A stretch of 64,000 nt of DNA from an uncultured bacterium (lineage in GTDB: Bacteria > Oederibacteriota > PGYV01 > CAWJRG01): contig CAWJRG010000005.1 in the NCBI GenBank assembly GCA_963845185.1, positions 64,001-128,000 of the forward strand. The letters are read 5' to 3'. Below are positions 1,921 through 35,564 of the stretch, piece by piece (within the stretch, counting starts at the first letter, position 1; each line of letters starts with the position of its first letter). The notes beneath the pieces are model-generated. The model had not been told where the DNA came from and did no database searches. It saw only the letters and a list, made by a program, of their open reading frames with translations. The position numbers and the translations under genes are program-made.

Positions 1921-2000
1921 CCTCCTATGATGATGTTTATTTTGTAAAGCTACTGCTGCAACAAAATATTACAGCACTCAAGCACCCGGTCAAGTCCCGA
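1921..2000 (-). ncRNA. Diverged copy C of a candidate structured 5'-leader element
   Basis: Shares CUCGG.ACUUGA.CGGGUGC, GUAA.AUUUUG.UGCA, UUU.CAAAA and GGAGG with the copy at 6604, and its 3' part with the copy at 23940. Confidence 0.45.
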
Positions 2001-2172
2001 GTTTGCGAGAGTCAAATAGTCCACTGGACTATTTGACGGGTAGTTTCCATAAGTTATTATCATATAAAAACTGCCCTGAAGATGTGCCTGTTTATTTTAC
2101 AAACTTTTCCGGTGCGGTAAAATATTATTGTTGCCCGCACTCATTCCAGTCAAAAACCGGATATAGCATTAG

Positions 2173-4168: not shown

Positions 4169-6598
4169 TTAATTCCTTGTCTTGTAAATTACCGTATCGG
4201 CCCTGTTCATATAAACCATATCCATAAACTGGGCAAATTTGTCAAACGCCTCTTTCGGCGCAGCCCTGTATTCGGGCTTTATTTTTTCAAGTATTCCCAC
4301 ATAAACATATTTTATATTGTATTTTTTTATCAGGCTCTGCGCCTCGTTAATATCCATCGTGGTGTATATTTTTTGTATATCCGCCATTCTTTTCCCCTGC
4401 TCGTCCCATGTCCCTCTCCACTGAAGCTCATGTCCCGGCCATCCAAGCACGGTAGGCAGCCCGGTAAAAGATGAAATCCTGGCGTATTCAGTGTATTCCG
4501 CCCCGTCTGCCTCGAGAATAACAGGCGTGTCTTTAATATTCTTTTTAATCCAGTCAATAGCCTGGTAATCGCCCGGGTATCTTGCGCTGAAAAACTCCGT
4601 GCCGTCAAGCGTCACGTAACCATTGAACCCGTTTGTTTTGACAATTGACGCTGCCATCGGGTAAAACAGGCCTGTAAATATGAAAAACGCGAAAACCGCG
4701 TACCATATAAACCTTATATAATTCGGTTTGAATTTAAGGTAAAAATGCTTTACCCAGAAAAATCCGTAAGCCGCTGCCACGGAAAACAATATCCAGGTCT
4801 GGTAATAAAACTTAAAAACCGTGTTCATCCTTTCCAGGGATGAATGTTCGCCTTCCTTGCCGAACGTGTCTTTTATATGCAGGAACTCGCATCCGAGCGA
4901 CAATAAAAAACCTGTAAAAATAAGAAGTATTACAAACTGGTTTTCTTTCATTTCAACCTTTGTAATAGCCAGCAGAAACACGATGCTCAGCATTACGACC
5001 ATCACTGCCGAAAAAAATCCATAATGCGGCTTGTCTATAATTGATTTATATACGAGGAAAATAAAGCCTATGGCAAATACCACGGCCGCCGACATGTATA
5101 TTTTATTGCTTTTGTAAGTATTGGGGTCTATGAGGAATTTAAAGAATGAAATTGCCTCCTCGTTGCCTTTTTTTATCGGCAATTCCACGCCTCCCAGCAG
5201 AAGCTCCTCGCCGCTTATTTTATACCCGCACTGCCCGCATATTGTCTTTCCTTCCCTGAATTCAAACGAGCACCTCGGGCAAAAAAGGCTCCTTTTTTTC
5301 GTCTTCAGCCCGGCAATGCCCTGGTATTTGATGGCGTAAATCCAGTTTGCTATCCTGCAGGCTATAAACGACAGGATCGGAAAAAGCATTATGCCGTATA
5401 TAGTCAGGTAATCCTTTATCCTCGTGTTTGCTTTTGTTATGCCTATGCCGCTTGCCTGTGACTTAAAAAATAGCGTGAAAGGCAGGTATGCTATTATGCC
5501 TATGCCGAGCACCAGCCCGATGCTGATTAGGGCGTCGTTCATCCATTCCTTTGGTTTTTCGTCCATCGAAAATTTATAGGAAAGTATGGACAGGGCTATG
5601 ATGAAAAAATATGTCGGGAAATCCCAGCTGTTTAAAAACCACAGCCCGCCAAGGAGCAGCCCCGCAAAAACGATAAAGGTTATTTTTTCAAAGTTTTTCT
5701 CAAATATTTTCTTATCCTCGTATTTGATGAAAGTAAGGGCTATATTCATGGCAAGAAGCACAAAAGGAATCGCTATCTGGTGAGGGTGTATGTCTCCGAG
5801 CAGGAATGAAAAAAACGGGAACTCGTTTATTGTGGTATCGTAATCCTTGTAATCGATTATCCTCGAGGTATGCCACCAGTTAAAATCAGTCAGGGTCCAG
5901 TTGTGCTGCACCACCTGGATAAAGCCGTCTATATTGCTGATTAAAAGCAGGAAAGCCGCAGCGAGAAAACCGATCATAAAATTTTTCGTGAGGTTATATA
6001 CAAGCCCGACCATTGCCAGCGCGCTCATTGCGACTACGTATGTGAGCGCGAGGTTGTAAGCTACCCCGTTCGGGATATTCACAAGCTTCATCATTATGGA
6101 CATCATAAGGTAACCGAAATAATAATAGCTTATATGGAAAGCGTCGCCTGCCATCCACGGGTCAAAAGGCGGCATCTTATCTGCCCTGGCTATCGAGTTC
6201 ATGAAAGCAAAATCCATGAATTTCTCAGTGCCAATGATATCCGGCTGGTATGACCTGAAAAGCGCGTAAGCTATGAATATCAGGAGGTAAAAGAGCTCGG
6301 AAATTATGATAATCGCCGGTTTTTCATTCATGAATTCAAATATTTCATTTTTTGTTTTGGTGAAAAGGTAGGCCGAAAAGCCGGTCATAAGCACTATTAC
6401 GATTATTATTGTAGACATGGAAAATTTAAAGAACCCAAAAAGCCATGAAAAATAAGATACTATAAACAATGCTATTATTTTTGAAAAAAGCCATCCTTTT
6501 TCATGCGATTTCTTAAACAGGAAAAAACTTATTGGATATGCCAGCAGGCCAAGTATGACTGAAATTAACCACCATTTCATTATGTAACCAAATGCCAC
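4169..6598 (-). CDS. DUF2298 / Chlor_Arch_YYY (TIGR03662) membrane protein, putative GT-C glycosyltransferase, with internal zinc ribbon
   Basis: GTEKFMDFAF, ISYYYFG, INEFPFFSFLLGDIHPH, NSWDFP, RMNTVFKFY, GWPGHELQWRG; internal CPRC...CGQC. Confidence 0.9.
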   Translation of the reverse strand: MAFGYIMKWWLISVILGLLAYPISFFLFKKSHEKGWLFSKIIALFIVSYFSWLFGFFKFSMSTIIIVIVLMTGFSAYLFTKTKNEIFEFMNEKPAIIIISELFYLLIFIAYALFRSYQPDIIGTEKFMDFAFMNSIARADKMPPFDPWMAGDAFHISYYYFGYLMMSIMMKLVNIPNGVAYNLALTYVVAMSALAMVGLVYNLTKNFMIGFLAAAFLLLISNIDGFIQVVQHNWTLTDFNWWHTSRIIDYKDYDTTINEFPFFSFLLGDIHPHQIAIPFVLLAMNIALTFIKYEDKKIFEKNFEKITFIVFAGLLLGGLWFLNSWDFPTYFFIIALSILSYKFSMDEKPKEWMNDALISIGLVLGIGIIAYLPFTLFFKSQASGIGITKANTRIKDYLTIYGIMLFPILSFIACRIANWIYAIKYQGIAGLKTKKRSLFCPRCSFEFREGKTICGQCGYKISGEELLLGGVELPIKKGNEEAISFFKFLIDPNTYKSNKIYMSAAVVFAIGFIFLVYKSIIDKPHYGFFSAVMVVMLSIVFLLAITKVEMKENQFVILLIFTGFLLSLGCEFLHIKDTFGKEGEHSSLERMNTVFKFYYQTWILFSVAAAYGFFWVKHFYLKFKPNYIRFIWYAVFAFFIFTGLFYPMAASIVKTNGFNGYVTLDGTEFFSARYPGDYQAIDWIKKNIKDTPVILEADGAEYTEYARISSFTGLPTVLGWPGHELQWRGTWDEQGKRMADIQKIYTTMDINEAQSLIKKYNIKYVYVGILEKIKPEYRAAPKEAFDKFAQFMDMVYMNRADTVIYKTRN

Positions 6599-6603
6599 AT
6601 AAC

Positions 6604-6712
6604 ACCTCCAAGCAAGAGTAATTTTTGCAAACCGTCAACAGGTGCAGCAAAAATTTTACTCTTGCTTGCACCCGTTCAAGTCCGAGGCTCAAAAGGCCGG
6701 GGACAAGTGGTG
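6604..6712 (-). ncRNA. Candidate structured cis-regulatory leader RNA or repeat, copy A
   Basis: About 20-bp stem ending at the GGAGG RBS, an alternative GGUGCA/UGCACC hairpin and an upstream GUCC..GGAC hairpin; homologous to 23940-24043. Confidence 0.55.
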
Positions 6713-6770
6713 CGGATAAACATTTTTCCCTTTAAATTGTTGTGTTTTTGGGAATTATTAAACAGGTTGA

Positions 6771-6799
6771 ATTATACTTAATATTTTTCTTGTTGTCAA
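6771..6799 (-). promoter_or_regulatory. Sigma70 promoter for the DUF2298 operon
   Basis: Perfect TTGACA-N17-TATAAT on the minus strand. Confidence 0.8.
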
Positions 6800-12603: not shown

Positions 12604-12822
12604 TAAATTAGCGCTAACTTTGTCAGCGATTTTAAGAACACTCCTTCCCCCTCGACGGGGGAAGGCCGGGATGGGGGTGAGGTAGCGGCTAATTCCGTAT
12701 CACTCACGCTAACATCCAATCCCGAAACTTCTTTCCTATATTTCGCATTCCATATTTAAATTATATAGTTGTTGCTGCTACTTCACCCTCACCCTACCCT
12801 CTCCCGTCAAGGGAGAGGGATA
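12604..12822. repeat. REP/REPIN-like GC-rich palindromic composite element, copy 1
   Basis: ccttccccctcgacgggggaaggccgggatgggggtga ... tcaccctcaccctaccctctcccgtcaagggagaggg in inverted arrangement. Confidence 0.8.
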
Positions 12823-18805: not shown

Positions 18806-18966
18806 TAAATTACCGCTGACTTTGGCAACGGAACCCCTTCCCCCTCGATGGGGGAAGGCCGGGATGGGGGTGATGTAGCAGCTGAGACTGTTTCACTCAT
18901 GCTGTTAATACTATTTCGCTGCTGCTTCACCCTCACCTTTATCCTCTCCCATCGAGGGAGAGGATA
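18806..18966. repeat. REP/REPIN-like composite element, copy 3 (homologous to 12604-12822)
   Basis: Shares the flank taaatta.cgct.actttg.ca.cg, both palindromic arms and part of the interior with copy 1. Confidence 0.8.
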
Positions 18967-22361: not shown

Positions 22362-23932
22362 TTGCTTTTCACTTCCTGGTCCTGTATGCGCGGGAAAAGA
22401 GGCGAGCCCTTTTCCACTTTCATGCCGGCTGTAATTTTCCCGAATTCCATTTCTTTATCCAGGTTAATCCGCTGCATGTCCAGGTTCATTTTTAAGTTCT
22501 GTTTCATTATTGCCTGCGCCACCCTGGGCATTACCGGCGCTATGGCCAGGGTAACCAGCCTTATGCTTTCGCAAAGCAAATACATGACGCTGCCCAGCTC
22601 TTTTATCTTGCCCTGCTTTTGCAGGTTCCACGGCGCCTCGTCCTCAATTAATTTATTGGCTGCCCTTACAAGCTCCCACGCGAGCTCCATGGCGCCCGAC
22701 AAATCAAACGCTTCCATTTTCTCCGCGTACTTTTTAAACAGGTCCTGCGACATTTCCATAATCTTGTTCATTTTGCCGTCAAGGCCCGGCATATCGAGCG
22801 CAGGCACCGTGCCCGCGAAATATTTTTCCACCATATTAAGCGACCTGTTTATCAGGTTGCCAAAATCATTTGCCAGGTCGTTGTTATACCTTGTTTTGAC
22901 TGCTTCTTCCGTACATTCGCCGTCCTGCCCGTTTGTGATATGCGCCGCGAAAAAATACCTTATCGGGTCAGTGCCGAAAGCAGTGCCCGCAAAAAGCGGG
23001 TTTGCCGCGAGCTCGACAGGGTCCACAACGTTCCCGCGTGTCTTTGACATTTTCTCCCCGCCGCTTAAAAGGAAACCATGTCCGAATACTTTTTTAGGCA
23101 GGGGCAGTCCGGCGGACATGAGCATTATGGGCCAGATTATACAATGGAACTTTATTATATCCTTGCCTATTATGTGCGCGTCAGCCGGCCAGTATTTGGC
23201 GAACTTTTTGTCATCAGCCGGGAACCCGGAAACCGTTATGTAGTTTATAAGTGCGTCAAACCATACGTAAACCTTATGTTCAATATCAAAGGAAAGCGGT
23301 ATTCCCCACTTCTGGCCGTGCCTTGACACGCTGATATCTTTCAGGCCTTCCTTTATCATATTTACTGTCTCGTTGCGCCTTGTTTCAGGCTCTATAAATC
23401 CCGGGTTGTCCCGTATGTGCTTTAACAGCCTGTCCTGGTATTTTGTGAGCTTGAGGAAATAATTCTCCTCTTTCAGCACGTCAGGCTTTGTCTTATGAAC
23501 CGGGCACTCGCCTTCCACCAAATCGGATTCCATGTAAAAGGCCTCGCATGAGCGGCAGTACCAGCCCTCGTAGTTGCCTTTGTAAATATCACCCGTGTCA
23601 AAGCATCTTTTAAAAAGCTCTGCCACTGCTTTTTTGTGCCTGTCTTCTGTCGTCTGTATGAAATCGTCGTAAGATATTTGGTACTGCGCGTAAACGTCCT
23701 TGAAAACCTTGGCCATTTCATCGCAGTAGGCCTTCGGGTCCTTTCCCTGCTCGACTGCCTTTGTGTAAACGTTTATACTGTGCTCGTCCGTGCCCGCGGA
23801 GAAAAGCACGTCAAAACCGCGCATCCTTTTATAGCGCGCTATTATATCCGCCGTTACCTTCTCGTACGCGTGCCCAATGTGAGGCTTCGAGTTGACGTAA
23901 TCTATGGCTGTTGTTATGAAAAATTTTTTCAA
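22358..23932 (-). CDS. metG: Methionyl-tRNA synthetase (short form, no C-terminal tRNA-binding domain)
   Basis: HIGH and KMSKT motifs, GTDEH, YVWFDAL; probable TTG start at 23932 after GAAGGA. Confidence 0.96.
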   Translation of the reverse strand: MKKFFITTAIDYVNSKPHIGHAYEKVTADIIARYKRMRGFDVLFSAGTDEHSINVYTKAVEQGKDPKAYCDEMAKVFKDVYAQYQISYDDFIQTTEDRHKKAVAELFKRCFDTGDIYKGNYEGWYCRSCEAFYMESDLVEGECPVHKTKPDVLKEENYFLKLTKYQDRLLKHIRDNPGFIEPETRRNETVNMIKEGLKDISVSRHGQKWGIPLSFDIEHKVYVWFDALINYITVSGFPADDKKFAKYWPADAHIIGKDIIKFHCIIWPIMLMSAGLPLPKKVFGHGFLLSGGEKMSKTRGNVVDPVELAANPLFAGTAFGTDPIRYFFAAHITNGQDGECTEEAVKTRYNNDLANDFGNLINRSLNMVEKYFAGTVPALDMPGLDGKMNKIMEMSQDLFKKYAEKMEAFDLSGAMELAWELVRAANKLIEDEAPWNLQKQGKIKELGSVMYLLCESIRLVTLAIAPVMPRVAQAIMKQNLKMNLDMQRINLDKEMEFGKITAGMKVEKGSPLFPRIQDQEVKSK

Positions 23933-23939
23933 TGTTTTT

Positions 23940-24043
23940 CCTTCAAGCATGAGTATTTTTTGCAAGCCTTATGGGCGCAGCAAAATATTACTCTTGCTTG
24001 CACCCGTTCCTATCCAAGGCTGCAAGGCCGAAGACAAGTGGTG
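23940..24043 (-). ncRNA. Candidate structured cis-regulatory leader RNA or repeat, copy B
   Basis: Homologous to 6604-6712; several substitutions preserve pairing as G-U on the minus strand only. Confidence 0.55.
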
Positions 24044-24130
24044 AAACCGCGCATTTTTAAATACCCCGTTACAAATAATATAAGTTGAAAATATGACCCC
24101 TGCATTTTGCTTGCTGAATTTTGGATTTCC

Positions 24131-26778: not shown

Positions 26779-29700
26779 TTAATCCGTTTCAGCCCTTATT
26801 AACGCAGATATCTTTACTATTTTCCTTGTTTTGTTGCCTATATTATCCACGCCTTCAACCACGCATATATATGTCCCGCTCGATACTTTCTCTCCGCCTA
26901 CGCCTTTTAAATCCCAGTTTATACTGGCTGCTCCAAGGTCACCGGCAAGTGTCCTTACAAGCTCACCTGCTATATTGTATATTTTTATTTTTATTGTACC
27001 GCCCGCGCTTGGCTGCCATGTAAATATTAAAGGGGTTGTAGTGTCTCCAGAGTATGGATTCGGCAATGACTTTACAGTGCCAAGCACATCGGTATTTCCT
27101 TCGTTAAGTATGGTAATTGACTTACTCGTAATTACAGTGCTGCCCTGGCCTGTTTTTACCACAAGCTGCACTTCATATACCCCGTTCTGCACATAATTCC
27201 CCTGTGAATTTTTTCCGTCCCATGATAACGGGGCGGCTGTGGAAGTGTAACTAATTGTTATCGGCGGCGCTCCCTTTCCTACTGGCAATACATAATTCTT
27301 ATTGCCGTTGGTGTTGCTTACGTCCAGCGATACCTGACCGTTGCCGTTATACGGCGCTGTTATCGTCTGCACAAGCTCCCCTGCGCTGTTGAAAATATTT
27401 ACCTGCACATAATGGTTTGTTCCAATTGCTGTTATCTGTTTTGTTATTACATTCGTATGCCCGTAAGGGTCGGTTGTAGTTTCTTTTATGTAATAAACCC
27501 CGTTTACTACGTTCTGGCCTGCGCTGTTTGTCCCGTCCCATGTAAAGTCAGAGTATGTACCTTTCTGCTGGTCAGGCGTTTGTATGCCTGGAATTCTTAT
27601 TGTAACCGCCGTGCCTGAGCCAGGCGAAACTACGCCTGTCTGGTTTCCGTTCAGCAGCAGTTCCACCTGCTGCGCTTCACCTGATGCCGTTGTATTTGTT
27701 ATTGTTTTCACCAGTTCCCCTGCCTCGTTATACACGCTTATATTAATAACATACTGGAATGGTTGCGGCGTAATCGTTATAGTCAACGTTTGCGTTATAG
27801 TGGCTGTTGCAGTGTCAGTAAGTGTCTGTGTGCTCGTCGATGTATATGTGTAAGTGCTTGTCTGCGTAAGTGTTCCCGTGTAGGTAACGCTGGCAGTGTC
27901 AGTAAGCGTCTGCGTGCTCGTCGATGTGTAAGTAGAGGTGCTAGTAGGCGTAAATGTTATTGTATATGTATATGTGCATGTCGGCGTATCGCTTGACGTA
28001 GGTGTAAACGAAGGTGTGTTTAAAGATGTATTTGTATATGTGCATGTTTCTGTTTGTGTATCAGTAACAGTATTTGTGGATGTGGCAGTGCTTGTATCGG
28101 TATACGTGCTTGTGGCTGTATATGTAAAAGTCTCGGTAAGCGTTATTGTATATGTGGGTGTGAATGTCGCCGACAGAATTATAATAGTATATGTCATTGT
28201 TATCGTATATGTCGGCGTATGCGTGCTTGTGGGCGTAGGCGTTTCCGTACTTGTGTATGTTACTGTTTCCGTATATGTGTCTGTGGGCGATGTCGTGTTT
28301 GTGTATGTCGGCGTATTTGTATTCGTGTCTGTCTGCGTGTAAGTTGGCGTTATTGTTTTTGTTATGGTGTAAGTAGGCGTAAACGTAGCTGACAGTATTA
28401 CCACGGTAAAAGACGTTGTTATAGTGTATGTCGGCGTATGTGTATTTGTAGGTGTAGGCGTTTGCGTGCTTGTGTATGTTACTGTATCCGTGTATGTGTC
28501 TGTAGGAGACATCGTGTTTGTGTATGTCGGAGTATTTGTCCGCGTTGACGTTTGCGTGTATGTCGGCGTTATTGTTAATGTTTCTGTCCGCGTTGACGTG
28601 GACGTGGCTGTATATGTAAATGTATACGTAACTGTCTGTGTATATGTTGGTGTCGGCGATGCCGTGTTTGTGTATGTCATCGTTGCTGTCGGCGTAGGCG
28701 TCTGTGTGTAAGTCGGCGTATATGTTTTGGTGAATGTTATTGACACTGTGTTTGTCACGCTAAAAGTAACTGTCCGTGTCGCTGTCACAGTATCTGTATA
28801 AGTGTAAGTATAGGTTACTGTATTTGTATTAGTGTATGTCACTGTCGATGTTCTTGTAAACGTAACAGTCGGGGTGTTCGTCAGCGTATATGTTCGTGTG
28901 TAAGTGAATGTTGGCGAATTTGAATTTGGCGTCGGCGTTGGTGTCCTTGTCGGCGTTATGGTGAATGTTGGCGACATGCATACAATATTAAATACTACCG
29001 GGTTTGAAAATTCCGATACTATATTTGTCGCTCCTATGCCTCCGACATTTGTAAAGCTCTGGGCGCATGCATTCGTTGATGCCCACCACGTATATGAACC
29101 GCTCTGGTCGCTTATGTTACCCATGTTCCAGCTAACCATCGGATTTGTTGTCGCTGCGCCTGGGTTTGACCCTGCGTATGTCAGTCCTGTCGGTATCGTG
29201 TCGTATAATGTCGCGTTTGCCGCCACCCTCGGCACAAGTATTGCAAAGTTATTATATGCATCCTGTACTGTTCCGTTGCCGTCACCTGACTGGTTCCCAA
29301 CACCAGGCCTCCAGTCAGTATATGTTGCGCCTGCGCCGCAGTTAAAACCTGTAGTTGCCGCGCCCGTATCTGTAAATGATACCTGGTACCCAGTCGGCTC
29401 TGGCTGCCCAACCTGCCATACTTTCGCATTGAATATATAATCATTTCCGTTTTGCGTCATATATGTCTTTGTCCTGTACCATGTATTGCCGACTATTGTT
29501 ATCGCGCTTGAAGCACCATTATATGTACAGCTTGACCCCGCACATTTCTGTATGGCCATGTATGCGCCTGCTGGTGCAGTATCAATTGATAAAAGCAGGC
29601 TGTATGCTTCGGCATTTCCGCCTGCTTGTCCATTGCTCCTTAAAATCACCAGTCCGTCTGCTCCGGGATATGTGCCAGGGTTTATATAAACATCTGCTTC

Positions 29701-31026
29701 AACTATCCCTGTGCATATCTGCACATTCGAAGGCGTCGGGTCGTCAAGAAGCATGGCCGGATATGACGATGACTGGCCGGCTCCTGTCAGTATCCTGTCT
29801 CCTGTGCTGCAAGGGTCGCTTATTGTCCATGTGCCGTAATCAGTGTTATACGGCAGCATTTTCCATCCTGCCGGCGGTTTATTGGTTATGCCGTATGTCC
29901 CCGTCGTTGTATCGTCAAACGCCCTTAATGCCTGAAGTTTGTCTCCGTTTACCTGGTAATCGAGATAGTATGTTATGGTCACGGTAGCATTCGTGGCTTT
30001 CATAAATGTGCTCACGCTCTCCAGTTTTTGCACTGATATTGCTGCCTGGCCCACTATCAGCGTGGCTGACGCGCTGTCATTGGTTGAACCGCTCGTCGCG
30101 TTTGCCGTGTTCGGCACTGACGTGCCTGATGCCATTGCTGTTGTCATCCTCATCAATATCCATACTGTGCCTGTTTTTGTGTATGTTGAATTCGGGAATG
30201 TCCATGTTACCGTGCCTGACGTGGCTCCCACACCAGGTGTTGTCACGCTTCCTGATGTTATTGAGCTCGGCCCGACCGACACCAGCGCGAGGCTTCCGCC
30301 TCCGGGCAGGCTGTCTGTTATTGTAAGCGGTCCGTTGCCGTAAGTGTAGTCTATGGAAAACAAAACAAGGTCCCCTACTGACTGCAGAACGCCCTCAACC
30401 CTTTTATCCAAAGTAACTGAATTGGCAGGCGGCGTTGGTAATGACCAGCTTAATACTGTTCCGGAGCCGCTTGAACTGCATGCGCCATTTGTTAAAGCAG
30501 CCCAGTTACTGCTACCAAAATATGAACTGTCTCCGCCTATTAACAAATTAAGAGTCGTCGCCCCGCACGCTGTCCCCATCTGCTGCGCGCTCGGCATTGT
30601 CAGGTTATACGACTCTGTGGCTAATCCAGCCTGGTTCCCCGAACCACCGCAGTCATTGCAATTTCCATAAGAGGGCGGCGCTGCTAAAACGTAGCCAAAA
30701 TCATTGCCTCCACTTGCGTTATTCGGGTTTGTGTCTGGGATATTAATGCCGTCTTTGCTTACCAAAAATATCTGTCCCCCTGTATTTGCCGGCTGGAAAG
30801 TGCTGCTCGTGCTCACTGCCACAAGCAGTTCATTGGTATTATACTCGTCCAGGCACATCTGCAAGGTTAAGATAAATTGCTGGCCCCAGCCCGGATTTGC
30901 AGGCGCTATGTTTACAGAAACTACTTGAGGAGTGCCAGCATAAATCAAGCTGCCTGATAATAAAAGCATGAATATAATTATTTCGATTAAAATATTTATC
31001 TTTTTTATGTTTTTTCTCATTTTCAT
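26779..31026 (-). CDS. Giant secreted surface protein: Cys-rich tip, DUF11-like Ig domains with an inserted lectin-like domain, (Thr-X)n stalk, three FlgD-like C-terminal domains
   Basis: Signal peptide; LDKRV..TDSLP..PNTA; about 400 aa of alternating Thr; three repeats of YNxAGELV..WDG..GxY; SLPNPY. Confidence 0.85.
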   Translation of the reverse strand: MKMRKNIKKINILIEIIIFMLLLSGSLIYAGTPQVVSVNIAPANPGWGQQFILTLQMCLDEYNTNELLVAVSTSSTFQPANTGGQIFLVSKDGINIPDTNPNNASGGNDFGYVLAAPPSYGNCNDCGGSGNQAGLATESYNLTMPSAQQMGTACGATTLNLLIGGDSSYFGSSNWAALTNGACSSSGSGTVLSWSLPTPPANSVTLDKRVEGVLQSVGDLVLFSIDYTYGNGPLTITDSLPGGGSLALVSVGPSSITSGSVTTPGVGATSGTVTWTFPNSTYTKTGTVWILMRMTTAMASGTSVPNTANATSGSTNDSASATLIVGQAAISVQKLESVSTFMKATNATVTITYYLDYQVNGDKLQALRAFDDTTTGTYGITNKPPAGWKMLPYNTDYGTWTISDPCSTGDRILTGAGQSSSYPAMLLDDPTPSNVQICTGIVEADVYINPGTYPGADGLVILRSNGQAGGNAEAYSLLLSIDTAPAGAYMAIQKCAGSSCTYNGASSAITIVGNTWYRTKTYMTQNGNDYIFNAKVWQVGQPEPTGYQVSFTDTGAATTGFNCGAGATYTDWRPGVGNQSGDGNGTVQDAYNNFAILVPRVAANATLYDTIPTGLTYAGSNPGAATTNPMVSWNMGNISDQSGSYTWWASTNACAQSFTNVGGIGATNIVSEFSNPVVFNIVCMSPTFTITPTRTPTPTPNSNSPTFTYTRTYTLTNTPTVTFTRTSTVTYTNTNTVTYTYTYTDTVTATRTVTFSVTNTVSITFTKTYTPTYTQTPTPTATMTYTNTASPTPTYTQTVTYTFTYTATSTSTRTETLTITPTYTQTSTRTNTPTYTNTMSPTDTYTDTVTYTSTQTPTPTNTHTPTYTITTSFTVVILSATFTPTYTITKTITPTYTQTDTNTNTPTYTNTTSPTDTYTETVTYTSTETPTPTSTHTPTYTITMTYTIIILSATFTPTYTITLTETFTYTATSTYTDTSTATSTNTVTDTQTETCTYTNTSLNTPSFTPTSSDTPTCTYTYTITFTPTSTSTYTSTSTQTLTDTASVTYTGTLTQTSTYTYTSTSTQTLTDTATATITQTLTITITPQPFQYVINISVYNEAGELVKTITNTTASGEAQQVELLLNGNQTGVVSPGSGTAVTIRIPGIQTPDQQKGTYSDFTWDGTNSAGQNVVNGVYYIKETTTDPYGHTNVITKQITAIGTNHYVQVNIFNSAGELVQTITAPYNGNGQVSLDVSNTNGNKNYVLPVGKGAPPITISYTSTAAPLSWDGKNSQGNYVQNGVYEVQLVVKTGQGSTVITSKSITILNEGNTDVLGTVKSLPNPYSGDTTTPLIFTWQPSAGGTIKIKIYNIAGELVRTLAGDLGAASINWDLKGVGGEKVSSGTYICVVEGVDNIGNKTRKIVKISALIRAETD

Positions 31027-31337: not shown

Positions 31338-34300
31338 CTATTCCGCTGTAGTACCTATAATGGCAAATATCTTTACTATCTTCCTCTCTTTGTTTCCTGC
31401 ATTATCCACGCCTTCTACCACGCACACATATACCCCGCTAGCTACTGTCTGTCCGCTTACACTCTTTAAATCCCAGTTTATGCTCCCTGTACCAAGATCG
31501 CCTATCAGTGTTCTCACAAGCTCTCCCGCCATGTTGTAGACTTTTATTTTTATTACTCCGCCCGCGCTTGGCTGCCATGTGAATTTCAATGGTGTTGCCG
31601 TATTTCCTGTGTACGGATTCGGCAATGATTTCACAATACCAAGCAAATTAGCTGTCCCTTCATTTAATATAGTAACTGTTTTGCTTATGCTTGTGTTATA
31701 ACCCCTGTTCGTATTTACAACAATCTGTATTTCATATACTCCGCTTTGCAAATAATTTCCCTGCGTGTTTTTCCCATCCCAGGTTACAGCGTTTGTTGCA
31801 GTGTAATTGATTGTTATCGGCGGAGCTCCATTTCCTACCGGCAATACAGCATTATTATTGGTATTATTGGTTATATTCAAAGACGTCTGGCTGATGCCGT
31901 CATAAGGTGCCTTTATTGTCTGTACAAGCTCTCCTGCGCTGTTAAAAATATTTATTTGCACATACTGTGTTTCGTCAAGTGCTGTTACCTGCTTGGTAAT
32001 TGTATTCGTATGCCCGTATGGGTCAGTTGTTGTTTCCTTTATGTAATACACTCCATTTGCTACATCCTGGCCTGCGCTGTTAGTGCCGTCCCACGTGAAG
32101 TCCGCATATCCGCCTTTTGCCTGGTTAGGCGTCTCTATATCAGGCATCCTTATTATCAGTGACGTGCCTGATCCAGGCAACACCAGCCCTGTCTGGCTGC
32201 CGTTCAGCAATAATTGCATATTCTGTGCCTCTTGCGAAGTAGTTGTATTTGCTACCACTTTCACCAGTTCTCCCGCCTCGTTATACACGCTTATGTTCAT
32301 CGCATAAGGGAAAGGTTGCGACGTCCCTGTAATCGTCGCCGTTGCTGTGGTTGTCAGCGTATTTGTTATCGAAGCTGTAATCGTGTTTGTTTCTGTGGAT
32401 GTCATCGAATAAGTTATCGACGCCGTCGCCGTTTTAGTCGTCGTGGATGTTGTCGTAAGCGTATTAGTATGTGTAGCGGTTATCGTAATAGTTATCGTAA
32501 AAGTGTAAGTACAAGTTTTTGTGAGGGTGACGCTGCACGTAGGACTTGCTGTTTGCGTAACTGTTGACGTATTTGCAGGCGTATTTGTATATGTTGAAGT
32601 AGATGTGTATGTTAGTGTTGCAGTCAGCGTATTAGTATGTGTGTTTGTGGAAGTTGCAGTTATTGTATATGTGCTTGTTAGCGTCTGCGTGTACGTAGCC
32701 GTATCTGTATTTGTATATGTGTATGTTGGCGAAGCCGTGTAAGTCGGCGTTATAGTCGGCGTATTCGTAAATGTAGGCAGTGTTGTTAATGTATTTGTCA
32801 TTGTCGCTGTATACGTATAAGTGTATGTCACTGTCTGCGTGTAAGTGTATGTCGGCGATAGCGTATTTGTGTATGTCGGTGTTGACGTTGAAGTTGGCGT
32901 CTGCGTATTTGTCAGCGTTACTGTATATGTCGGCGTCTGCGTATTTGTCGCTGTTGACGTATACGTATAAGTGTATGTCACTGTCTGCGTGTAAGTACAT
33001 GTCGGCGACAGCGTATCTGTGTATGTAGTCGTTGCTGTTGGTGTAGAAGTCTGCGTATTTGTCAGCGTTACTGTATATGTCGGTGTCTGTGTGTTTGTGG
33101 ATGTCGAAGTTTGCGTGAATGTATAAGTATCCGTCTGCGTATATGTATATGTCAGTGTTAGCGTGCCTGTGCATGTCGGCGTTGCCGTCGGCGTAGAAGT
33201 CTGTGTGCATGTCAGAGTTACTGAATAAGTCGGTGTCTGCGTTTTTGTCGCTGTCGGCGTATAAGTATATGTATAGGTGTCAGTCTGCGTGTATGTTGGC
33301 GTCACTGAAGGCGTATTTGTACTTGTAGCTGTCGGTGTATAAGTATATGTATATGTGTAGGTTGGGGTATTTGTATAAGTGTATGTTGGCGTAGGCGTAT
33401 TTGTAAATGTCGGTGACGGCGTGTTTGTGGGAGTAACCGTGTATGTTGGCGTTACTGTAGGTGTATCTGTAACAGTGGAACCTGGCGGCGGCGGCGTATT
33501 TGTTGGTGACACGCATAACACGTTGAATACAACAGGATTGGAAAATTCCGGTACTATACTCGACGCACCTATACCGCCTACATTTGTAAAACTCTGGCCG
33601 CAAGCTGATGTAGATGCCCACCATGTATATGAACCGCTCTGATCGCTTATATTGCCCAGGCTCCATGTCACCATCTGTGGTGACCCTCCGACGCCTGTGG
33701 CAACCGGGTTGGAGTTTATATACGTCAATCCCGCGGGTATCGTGTCATACAAAACCGCACTTGCCGCAACCCTCGGTATTAATACAGTAAAATTATTATA
33801 TGAATCCTGTACATTGCCGGTGGTACTTGACTGCTGTCCAACTCCAGGCCTCCAGTCAGTATATGTTGCGCCTGCACCGCAGTTAAAGCCAGTGATAGCC
33901 GCGCCTGTATCTGTCCATGTAACCTGGTAAGCTGATGGCTCAGGTTGTCCAATCTGCCATATCTTTGAATTAAACACATAATTATTGCCGTTTTGCGTCA
34001 TCCATGTCTTTGTCCTGTACCATGTGTTACCGGTTATTGTAACTGCATCTGACGCACCGCCATACGTGCAACCAGACCCCGCGCATTTCTGTATGGCCAT
34101 ATACCCGCCTGCGGGATTGGTGTCTATTGATAAAAGAAGGCTATAGGCTTCGGCATTATTGCCTGCCTGTCCGTTGCTCCTCAAAATCACCAGGCCGTCT
34201 GCTCCGGGATATGTCCCGGGGCTTATAAAAACATCCGCCTCAACTATGCCTGTGCATATCTGCACGTTCTCTGTATTTCCAGAAGGGTCATTCAGCAAAA

Positions 34301-35564
34301 GCGCTGGATATGAGTTTGCCTGGCCTGCTCCGGTTAATATCCTGTCTCCTGTACTGCATGGGTCTGAAATTGTCCATGTGCCATAATCGGTATTATACGG
34401 CAAATATTCCCATCCTGACGGCGCTGCCGCCGGGTAGGTGTAAGTATTCAGTGCTGTATCGTCAAACGCCCTGTAGTCCTTAAGCTGGTCTCCGTTTATC
34501 TGGTAATTAAGATAATATGTTATGGTGACAGAAGCTCCCGGTTGTTTCATGAATGTGCTCACGCTCTCCAGTTTTTGCACTGATATTGCTGCCTCGCCCA
34601 CTGTCAGCGTTGCCGAAGAACTGCCGTTATTTCCTCCGATTGTGCTGGTTGCCGTATTTGACACCATCATTCCCGATGCCATCGCCGTAGTCATGCTCAT
34701 CAATATCCATACTGTGCCTGTCTTTGTGTAGATTGAACTTGGGAATGTCCATGTTACCGTGCCTGACATGGTACCTGCTGCAGGTGCATTCACGCTTCCT
34801 CCTGATATTGAACTCGGCCCGACAGACACAAGTGCAAGGTTTCCTCCGCCCGGCAGGCTGTCTGTTATTGTAAACGGCCCTCCATTCCCGTATGTGTAAT
34901 CAATTGAAAATAGAACCAGGTCCCCGACATACTGCAGCACGCCTTCTACCCTTTTATTCAATGTGTATGAATTGGTCAACGGCACCGGCATTGTCCAGCT
35001 TACAGCTCTCGCGTTGCAAGAGCTGCTCGTCAAGTCAGCCCAGTCTTGAGACTGTAAACCTGCGCTTTTTGTACCAACAAGCAGGTAAAGTGTCGTCGAG
35101 CCGCATTCTGTCCCCATGTCCGCAGCATTCGGCATTGTAAGGTTAAATGAGAATGCCTGCGGATAGCCATCGTTGCTGCCGGTACATGTACTGCAGCTTA
35201 ATATTGGCGTTGGACTTATATTCGGCGGCTGCCACCCCATATCATTGCTGGGACCATTCGGACTTGTGCTGTGAACGTCAATGCCTAAGTTGCTTACTAA
35301 AAATATCTGGCCTCCCGAATTGGCAGGCTGAAATGTATTGCTTGTGCTCACTGCAATATCAAGGTCGTTCTCCGAGTTATAAGCATCATGGCATATCTGC
35401 AAATTAACCACAAATTGTTGTCCCCAAGTTGGATTTTGAGGAGTAATACTTAATGAGGTTATTGAAGGATTGGCTGCATAAGCAGTATTACTGGCTATTA
35501 ATAGTATAAATAGTATTATAACTTTGGGAATGTTTATCCGTTTAAAGTGTTTTTGCAGATTCAT
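31338..35564 (-). CDS. Giant secreted (Thr-X)n stalk protein, tandem paralog of 26779-31026
   Basis: Same architecture; identical segments such as PYNTDYGTWTISDPCSTGDRILTGAGQ and CGAGATYTDWRPGVG. Confidence 0.85.
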   Translation of the reverse strand: MNLQKHFKRINIPKVIILFILLIASNTAYAANPSITSLSITPQNPTWGQQFVVNLQICHDAYNSENDLDIAVSTSNTFQPANSGGQIFLVSNLGIDVHSTSPNGPSNDMGWQPPNISPTPILSCSTCTGSNDGYPQAFSFNLTMPNAADMGTECGSTTLYLLVGTKSAGLQSQDWADLTSSSCNARAVSWTMPVPLTNSYTLNKRVEGVLQYVGDLVLFSIDYTYGNGGPFTITDSLPGGGNLALVSVGPSSISGGSVNAPAAGTMSGTVTWTFPSSIYTKTGTVWILMSMTTAMASGMMVSNTATSTIGGNNGSSSATLTVGEAAISVQKLESVSTFMKQPGASVTITYYLNYQINGDQLKDYRAFDDTALNTYTYPAAAPSGWEYLPYNTDYGTWTISDPCSTGDRILTGAGQANSYPALLLNDPSGNTENVQICTGIVEADVFISPGTYPGADGLVILRSNGQAGNNAEAYSLLLSIDTNPAGGYMAIQKCAGSGCTYGGASDAVTITGNTWYRTKTWMTQNGNNYVFNSKIWQIGQPEPSAYQVTWTDTGAAITGFNCGAGATYTDWRPGVGQQSSTTGNVQDSYNNFTVLIPRVAASAVLYDTIPAGLTYINSNPVATGVGGSPQMVTWSLGNISDQSGSYTWWASTSACGQSFTNVGGIGASSIVPEFSNPVVFNVLCVSPTNTPPPPGSTVTDTPTVTPTYTVTPTNTPSPTFTNTPTPTYTYTNTPTYTYTYTYTPTATSTNTPSVTPTYTQTDTYTYTYTPTATKTQTPTYSVTLTCTQTSTPTATPTCTGTLTLTYTYTQTDTYTFTQTSTSTNTQTPTYTVTLTNTQTSTPTATTTYTDTLSPTCTYTQTVTYTYTYTSTATNTQTPTYTVTLTNTQTPTSTSTPTYTNTLSPTYTYTQTVTYTYTYTATMTNTLTTLPTFTNTPTITPTYTASPTYTYTNTDTATYTQTLTSTYTITATSTNTHTNTLTATLTYTSTSTYTNTPANTSTVTQTASPTCSVTLTKTCTYTFTITITITATHTNTLTTTSTTTKTATASITYSMTSTETNTITASITNTLTTTATATITGTSQPFPYAMNISVYNEAGELVKVVANTTTSQEAQNMQLLLNGSQTGLVLPGSGTSLIIRMPDIETPNQAKGGYADFTWDGTNSAGQDVANGVYYIKETTTDPYGHTNTITKQVTALDETQYVQINIFNSAGELVQTIKAPYDGISQTSLNITNNTNNNAVLPVGNGAPPITINYTATNAVTWDGKNTQGNYLQSGVYEIQIVVNTNRGYNTSISKTVTILNEGTANLLGIVKSLPNPYTGNTATPLKFTWQPSAGGVIKIKVYNMAGELVRTLIGDLGTGSINWDLKSVSGQTVASGVYVCVVEGVDNAGNKERKIVKIFAIIGTTAE

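Follow-up and report, generated by a model that had tools for sequence, protein, structure and literature searches.

Bacterial genomes hold several kinds of small structured repeat. The BOX elements of Streptococcus pneumoniae and the ERIC (or IRU) elements of enterobacteria are structured intergenic repeats built of modules; they are co-transcribed and can change the stability or expression of mRNAs. REP sequences and BIMEs with their RAYT proteins, the ends of IS200/IS605 and the PATEs, which derive from IS200/IS605 and lack genes, are small hairpin repeats, possibly handled as single-stranded DNA, that insert beside a short specific sequence. Integron attC sites and the Vibrio cholerae repeats are imperfect palindromes of ~60–140 nucleotides (nt) with bulged bases, present in >100 copies before the ribosome-binding site (RBS) of the next open reading frame (ORF). 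The RNase III sites between phage T7 early genes and the 5′ stabilizer hairpins of Bacillus mRNAs are single sites. Here we analyse an element, termed copy A, that lies upstream of a DUF2298 membrane protein gene in a 64,000-nt stretch (the window) of contig CAWJRG010000005.1 (positions 64,001–128,000) from an uncultured bacterium of the Oederibacteriota. A preliminary description, made from the letters of the window, had read it as a riboswitch-like leader present in three copies. We assign a probability of roughly 0.6 to a different reading, in which copy A belongs to a lineage-specific family of structured modules ~100 nt long, with ~180 copies mostly in sense orientation and 5′ of the Shine–Dalgarno (SD) sequences of unrelated genes, and acts as a constitutive leader, not a ligand switch.

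The nearest described thing to this element, going by the accessible part of PMC3184786, is the Neisseria REP2 repeat, which is 120–150 bp long, has ~26 copies, no terminal inverted repeats and two internal stem-loops, and lies directly upstream of ORFs. REP2 is said there to carry its own promoter, RBS and ATG; the IR-A/IR-B repeats of Borrelia plasmids are given as similar (Delihas 2011, PMC3184786), and in the same portion of the paper the origin and mode of spread of REP2 are left unexplained. The element is like REP2 in being a ~100–150-nt intergenic repeat with two internal stem-loops and no terminal inverted repeats, placed in the 5′ untranslated region (5′ UTR) before unrelated ORFs. 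It differs in that the promoter, SD and start codon of copy A are those of the gene, a promoter-like site (≥10 of 12 positions) being found inside only 2 of 79 copies, and in having ~180 copies rather than ~26, with stand-alone units in sister families; by our own reading the two have no likeness in sequence. Putative mobile promoters, as set out in the part of PMC3575422 consulted, are also homologous upstream regions before non-homologous genes, but the element lies downstream of the promoter and is itself without a strong one. A term search within PMC7031533 returned no description of the element. The Rfam scan of the whole window at gathering thresholds gave 2 tRNAs only, and scans by E value gave chance-level matches only, for copies A and B as for seven relatives' loci, in agreement with the preliminary description, which could not match copy A to a known riboswitch family. 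The element is an undescribed variant of the bacterial structured dispersed repeats, unusual in its exact placement before the RBS and in its small-RNA-like relatives.

Family size and the two-hairpin fold

The source organism's own genome (G000; 3.50 Mb in 11 contigs, 99.4% complete) gave well over 100 blastn matches to the three window copies. An iterated nhmmer search from copy A found 177 matches at E ≤ 1e-3 on seven contigs, 139 of which reach the 3′ end of the 92-position model and are counted here as full-length, and a covariance model (CM), R1, scored at least 120 matches. The count of three copies is thus far too low, and the alternative that the preliminary description had kept in reserve, an exapted repeat, gains support from a dispersed family of this size. 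It had also named many copies in random orientation or position as telling against a leader RNA: the copies are indeed many, but their orientation and position are far from random (89 copies against 1, below). Judged by a mean pairwise identity of 0.64, the copies are old; the median identity to the nearest neighbour is 0.86, and just 4 of 95 copies have a neighbour at ≥95%.

The fold was assessed on alignment A1, comprising 95 copies and a structure of 29 pairs. The arrangement given in the preliminary description, in which a GCACC:GGUGC helix (P1) encloses a GUCC:GGAC hairpin (P2) and is followed by a long hairpin, proved correct on the minus strand. The 29 pairs are paired in 90.5% of cells, compared with 76.7 ± 0.4% after shuffling (0 of 500 shuffles reach the observed value) and with 34–44% when partners were slid by 1–3 columns. 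Cells changed on both sides number 366, against 113 in the shuffles, and 19 pairs show compensatory changes; 17 of the 29 pairs make up the long hairpin, 13 of them with changes on both sides. Among 94 distinct copies, P1 pair 5-48 is UA in 56 and CG in 27, and P2 pair 16-34 occurs as five standard pair types. Within subfamilies, private changes strike paired columns at a rate of 6.6% and unpaired columns at 11.6%, and where both sides of a pair have changed, pairing is preserved in 40 cases and lost in 2. Compensatory changes thus maintain both hairpins.

The junction letters CUUG, CUUGA.CGGG and GUAA are invariant or nearly so, and the long hairpin carries a conserved GUAA / AAC internal loop. 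Folding of 120 copies alone gave a mean occupancy of 0.78 for the long hairpin and 0.86 for P1. The minimum free energy (MFE) of the copy A region is −47.4 kcal/mol (z = −3.7), lower than that of 200 of 200 shuffles.

The copy A locus

The promoter, which the preliminary description had located at 6771-6799 and called perfect, stands (Table 1): the same TTGACA..TATAAT arrangement precedes the orthologous gene in metagenome locus L051 and in at least 11 orthologous loci that have no element. It is separated by a plain leader of ~50 nt from copy A, whose long hairpin runs directly into the GGAGG. The SD begins beyond the last pair, so that the long stem does not cover the RBS as had been proposed. 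We take the GTG at 6598 as the true start because SD, start and N-terminus, the last in the form M-(A/G)-(F/L)-..-G-Y-I-(M/I)-K-W-W, are all kept in orthologues lacking the element. An in-frame ATG at 6580-6578 (MKWW..), 18 nt past the GTG, is not the start, since ATA replaces it in some orthologues; a 6-codon out-of-frame ATG ORF (6600-6580) overlaps it.

Table 1. Coordinates of the element copies and associated features (window positions unless a contig is named)
Feature	Position	Strand	Basis
Sigma-70-type promoter of DUF2298 gene	−35 TTGACA 6799-6794, 17-nt spacer, −10 TATAAT 6776-6771	minus	12/12 consensus positions
Copy A, two-hairpin repeat (P1 5′ strand to last pair of long hairpin)	6610..6713	minus	CM match 6596-6716, 88.7 bits, E = 1.4e-19; nhmmer match C5:70621-70711
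Copy A 5′ module	6668..6713	minus	P1 GCACC 6713-6709 : GGUGC 6672-6668 encloses P2 GUCC 6704-6701 : GGAC 6683-6680
Copy A long hairpin	6610..6667	minus	5′ arm 6667-6647, apex 6646-6629, 3′ arm 6628-6610; MFE fold
SD GGAGG, the gene's own, outside the repeat	6605..6609	minus	GGAGGTG.. and GTG/ATG start at the same place in 14 repeat-less orthologous loci
DUF2298 membrane protein, 809 amino acids, start GTG 6598-6596	4169..6598	minus	Pfam PF10060, E = 4e-104
Copy B, then AAGGA (23943-23939) and TTG start (23932-23930) of metG	23944..24043	minus	CM match 23931-24047, 76.3 bits; MetG PF09334
Copy C, then AGGAGG (1926-1921) and ATG (1912-1910) of NHL-repeat gene	1927..2042	minus	CM match 1913-2025, 60.4 bits; NHL PF01436
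Partial further copy (model positions 55-92) located upstream of copy C	2091..2127	minus	CM match 19.2 bits, E = 0.0066; direct-repeat family D19
Group II intron copies in G000	C9:700695-701384, C9:811636-812325, C9:845477-846166, C10:383780-384469, C10:832145-832834, C11:62007-62696		RVT_1, identical scores

A metagenome scan with the DUF2298 protein gave 22 loci encoding an orthologue, which were searched for the element by nhmmer. One of them, L051, which encodes the closest orthologue (85% amino acid identity), has the element at the same spot between promoter and GGAGG; no element was found by nhmmer in the remaining 21. In the 14 loci that were inspected (54–69% amino acid identity), a TTGACA..TATAAT promoter, a leader of 45–90 nt, GGAGGTG.. 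and a GTG or ATG start are present and the element is not. It is also absent at the copy A site in nine genomes of the same order. Promoter, SD and start thus belong to the gene, since all are kept in orthologous loci without the element. Hence a recent ancestor acquired copy A as an insertion of ~104 nt directly 5′ of the SD that the gene already had. This empty-site comparison was made for copy A only, with a genome collection that holds no same-family or same-genus relatives. The G000 and L051 copies are nearly identical in the long hairpin and have different variants of the small P2 hairpin, a difference that points to module exchange between copies; in this the element resembles BOX and ERIC repeats, whose modules also recombine.

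Within the window, the CM of the element recognized three complete copies and a single fragment, each of them on the minus strand. The homologues noted earlier before metG and the NHL gene, both in sense orientation, were confirmed as CM matches (76 and 60 bits). In copy C, a 23-nt palindrome (2035-2013) is nested between P2 and what we read as the 5′ strand of P1 (ACCCG, 2041-2037). This palindrome, which is perfect and of the CAAATAGTCC..GGACTATTTG type, is itself dispersed, with dozens of blastn matches in the genome on both strands. Other repeats were seen in the window: a 71-nt direct repeat, 86% identical, at 12640-12710 and 18833-18903 contains a G+C-rich, CCCCTCGACGGGGG-like palindrome, and two paralogous ORFs of ~1410 amino acids on the minus strand (26779-31026 and 31338-35564), with DNA 71–80% identical over long stretches, have internal repeats with a 6- and 12-nt periodicity (GTNNNN on the plus strand).

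Placement before Shine–Dalgarno sequences

A copy was counted as SD-linked if GGAG or GAGG occurred after model position 92 with a start codon 3–12 nt further on and an ORF of at least 40 codons. By this rule at least 89 of the 139 full-length copies are SD-linked in sense orientation. The motif is spaced 6–14 nt past model position 92 in 88 of these and 10–11 nt past it in 62, and the copies end 0–4 nt before it. The same rule was satisfied on the antisense side of the element in 1 of 139 cases and at random intergenic positions in 294 of 5000. Among the 50 copies that fail it, 16 precede another copy in tandem (our own reading of the list), and several have weaker SDs, as does copy B (AAGGA, with a TTG start). 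About eight copies have a short repeat of TTTTCAAT / ATTGAAAA heptads where the SD is expected (for example, from C9:671561 onward, and from C5:35405 and C1:208383 downward); the reverse complement of this heptad motif also occurs upstream of other copies.

Genes in G000 show a strong strand bias: the locally dominant strand, which follows GC skew, holds 86% of crude ORF calls. Seven of the 89 SD-linked copies are found on the minor gene strand of their region, yet they too are in sense to their own genes, so the orientation follows transcription and not replication. An orientation tied to replication is ruled out by these seven copies together with the opposite orientation relative to neighbouring genes in a sister family, f10 (below). 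BOX and ERIC repeats lack a fixed SD junction and occur both ways round, whereas the junction of the element is fixed within a few bases and its orientation divides 89 to 1.

The genes behind the element are unrelated. A Pfam scan of 28 downstream proteins matched 21, and no family was common to two proteins; the genes include ATP synthase a, GatC, NifU, glycerol kinase, an ABC ATPase, an M23 peptidase, Nuo51, HlyD, MetG, NHL and DUF2298. Signal-peptide-like N-termini, scored with a crude N-terminal rule, are not enriched (31 of 89, against 777 of 2721 genome-wide). In 21 of the 89 cases the copy is intercistronic, a co-directional gene ending ≤40 nt before it. Because ~180 copies front the RBSs of many unrelated genes, we regard the element as a portable leader module and not as a metabolite-sensing switch.

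The switch originally proposed would have GGUGC pair either with the upstream GCACC or with a downstream UGCACC, closing or opening a stem by the RBS. We consider it very improbable. For copy A the competing fold is real in the predictions: within its 156-nt context, the fold forced into the alternative pairing has −52.1 kcal/mol against −52.6 kcal/mol for the best fold, a difference of 0.5 kcal/mol, and the alternative helix has an ensemble probability of ~0.21. That part of the claim of mutually exclusive folds holds, but the modelled alternative is not a trait of the family. The alternative helix GGUGCA:UGCACC (alignment columns 45-51 with 72-77) is paired in 42.0% of cells, compared with 40.2% after shuffling and 34–64% in slid controls. 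When the 120 copies were folded alone, the P1 3′ strand was paired with the apex at a mean probability of 0.076; the value exceeded 0.1 in 12 copies and was 0.003 in copy A. The SD lies outside the stem and is no less accessible than elsewhere, with a predicted unpaired probability of 0.50 in the 89 element-linked genes and 0.47 in 250 others (p = 0.32). Neither a single pathway or ligand among the downstream genes (at least 89, with no shared Pfam family) nor a conserved alternative pairing gating the RBS or a terminator was found in the family, no Rfam family matches, and the DUF2298 gene works without the element in 14 orthologous loci. A ligand-sensing riboswitch is contradicted, for the family as a whole, by the unconserved switch helix, the number of unrelated genes and the ordinary SD accessibility.

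In the favoured reading, that of a constitutive leader module, copy A would be transcribed as part of the 5′ UTR from a start site near 6764, since it lies between the conserved promoter and the gene's own SD. It is predicted to fold by itself into a pair of stable hairpins, with the SD left single-stranded. The effect would be constitutive, the self-contained folded leader shielding or defining the 5′ part of the mRNA, and such a role is the most economical one because ~100 unrelated genes carry the element. Selection probably acts on the transcribed sense strand, as the module also occurs as stand-alone units resembling small RNAs in sister families. By analogy, the intercistronic copies might act as processing or stabilizing sites of the T7 RNase III kind. 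The T7 sites are likewise irregular ~25-bp hairpins with an internal loop just upstream of the RBS of the next gene; they and the Bacillus hairpins are, however, single sites, in contrast to the dispersed family described here.

Four results weigh against a selected leader of this kind. Shared descent within subfamilies inflates the covariation counts. The helix mismatches comprise 40 G.U or U.G cells and 64 A.C or C.A cells (our own tally), and without an excess of G.U over A.C there is no signature of selection on the sense RNA alone. As the predicted SD accessibility does not change, a benefit to translation is unsupported by folding. Strong promoter-like sites occur upstream of 16 of 79 copies, barely more often than in the background (142 of 1000), so the transcription unit is unproven for most copies.

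Relatives, spread and meaning

CM R1 detected the element in 12 of the 23 same-order genomes, with 1–18 copies apiece, and gave no match in seven genomes drawn from other orders in the phylum. When 185,579 species genomes were scanned for the pattern, multi-copy matches came only from metagenome-assembled genomes (MAGs) titled 'candidate division FCPU426' or 'uncultured bacterium'; the 16 single matches in unrelated taxa are about the number estimated by chance. In one relative (G001), the two best copies are like those of G000, with the element followed by (T)AAGGAGG and ATG. The copies of family f10 (G014, G019, G020 and G023) and, similarly, of G003 are arranged differently. By our own reading a −10-like box (TATTAT, TGTTAA or similar) ends 4–8 nt before the element, which is followed by an A-run and then by a GC-rich hairpin that differs from locus to locus; hairpin and T-run follow 14 of 21 copies. 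Both neighbouring genes are on the opposite strand in 16 of 19 cases. With their −10 box and terminator these copies look like stand-alone small-RNA genes, whereas in G000 a terminator-like site follows only 4 of 139 copies.

Conservation across genera is seen for two of the relatives' loci, the first flanked by two minus-strand genes (L075-L078) and the second located between genes that we name from sequence as fabG and acpP (L080, L081, L082, L084 and L093, from G021, G009, G017, G016 and G019, respectively). The copy at the latter locus is antisense to both genes and extends with its 3′ arm over the stop codon of fabG; it might serve as an antisense RNA or as a bidirectional structure. In G000, seven element units form a tandem array with an exact 100-nt period at C9:916520-917174 (locus L012, about 80-740), followed by neither an SD nor a gene.

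The conserved unpaired letters would offer a possible docking site for a common trans-acting factor. Taken further, the 5′ module would bind one putative RNA-binding protein or nuclease and place ~100 genes under common post-transcriptional control, with stand-alone and tandem copies serving as decoys, much as CsrA binds sites in leaders and is drawn off by CsrB-type sponge RNAs. Unpaired letters that are invariant or nearly so and flank covarying helices are consistent with such a site, as are the promoter-and-terminator units of the sister families, the seven-unit array and one terminator-followed copy in G000, and the location of the element directly beside the SD. The downstream genes, however, have no common theme, and the Csr system serves here as an analogy; we judge common control of this sort distinctly unlikely.

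Another possibility is that the element is a selfish, non-autonomous DNA repeat resembling MITEs (miniature inverted-repeat transposable elements), REPs or PATEs. Its hairpins would then be used as DNA by a transposase or recombinase, with the RNA fold arising as a by-product and the position before the SD reflecting target choice only. The high copy number fits this, as does the lack of the insertion at more distant orthologous sites. G000 contains tandem and nested copies. Directly upstream of intact copies there are often leftovers of earlier 3′ ends, a pattern suggestive of repeated arrival at the same spot. In 76 of 77 copies a purine occupies the 5′ flanking position −1, and the element's 3′ end borders on a run of purines in both lineages, AAGGAGG in G000 and an A-run with a G-rich hairpin in f10. 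A signal like that of target duplication is weak (mean shared suffix 1.09, against 0.75–0.78 after shuffling; mostly 0–3 nt, and confounded by the older remnants upstream). The surplus of A.C over G.U mismatches also fits a DNA element.

Several observations nonetheless make a selfish repeat unlikely. We read no terminal inverted repeats, the consensus ends YACCGCTTG.. and ..ACGNTATCAAG not being reverse complements of each other, so that the element does not belong with MITEs defined in that way. Y1/HUH transposase (PF01797) and TnpB (PF07282) gave no match in the 99.4% complete G000, whilst control genomes were positive. Membership among REP/RAYT repeats or IS200/IS605-derived PATEs was rejected on this ground; the element is like them in being a small hairpin-forming repeat beside a short specific sequence, but its orientation follows genes (89 to 1) and not the replichore. 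That orientation to neighbouring genes is reversed in f10. The copies, although old, are still 90% paired with their unpaired letters conserved. Integron attC sites share the bulged imperfect palindrome before an RBS and the >100 copies. The element copies, however, are spread over seven contigs before core genes (ATP synthase, MetG, GatC) rather than in one cassette array, and by our own reading their ends have no RYYYAAC/GTTRRRY core; an integron integrase was not searched for.

Alone among 24 genomes of the order, G000 has a multi-copy reverse transcriptase, as six copies of one group II intron (Table 1); G013 has one RVT_1 match. Of the intron loci, the four scanned (L110-L113) were confirmed to carry RF02005 (D1-D4) and RF00029 (domain V-VI). 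A link between element and intron gained no support: no element lies within four of the six intron loci, and the intron copy on C11 lies ~840 nt from an element with a disrupted 3′ arm. The multi-copy intron in G000 is one coincidence only, and multi-copy elements are often lost from MAGs. It is conceivable, though we regard it as a long shot, that the module is a small-RNA gene turned mobile: in the sister families it would be a multi-copy small RNA transcribed on its own, and in this lineage it would have been copied ~100 times onto RBS purine tracts, perhaps via an RNA intermediate. In that case ~4% of the genes would share an RNA handle by which a single trans-acting factor could tune their translation or decay.

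For annotation, the lesson of the family is that a leader may fold well, covary and have alternative pairings without being a riboswitch. If the reading as a constitutive leader module is correct, about one gene in 25, including the core genes for ATP synthase a, GatC and MetG, would be translated behind the same folded 100-base leader end. Such leaders would be nature's equivalent of the engineered 'insulator' leaders of synthetic biology, and the family would be a case far larger and more precise than the 26-copy Neisseria REP2 as portrayed in the accessible part of PMC3184786. The pairing of small-RNA-like stand-alone copies with copies that abut an SD would provide a system for learning how small structured RNAs become cis-regulatory parts of mRNAs and what machinery places DNA exactly before a Shine–Dalgarno sequence.

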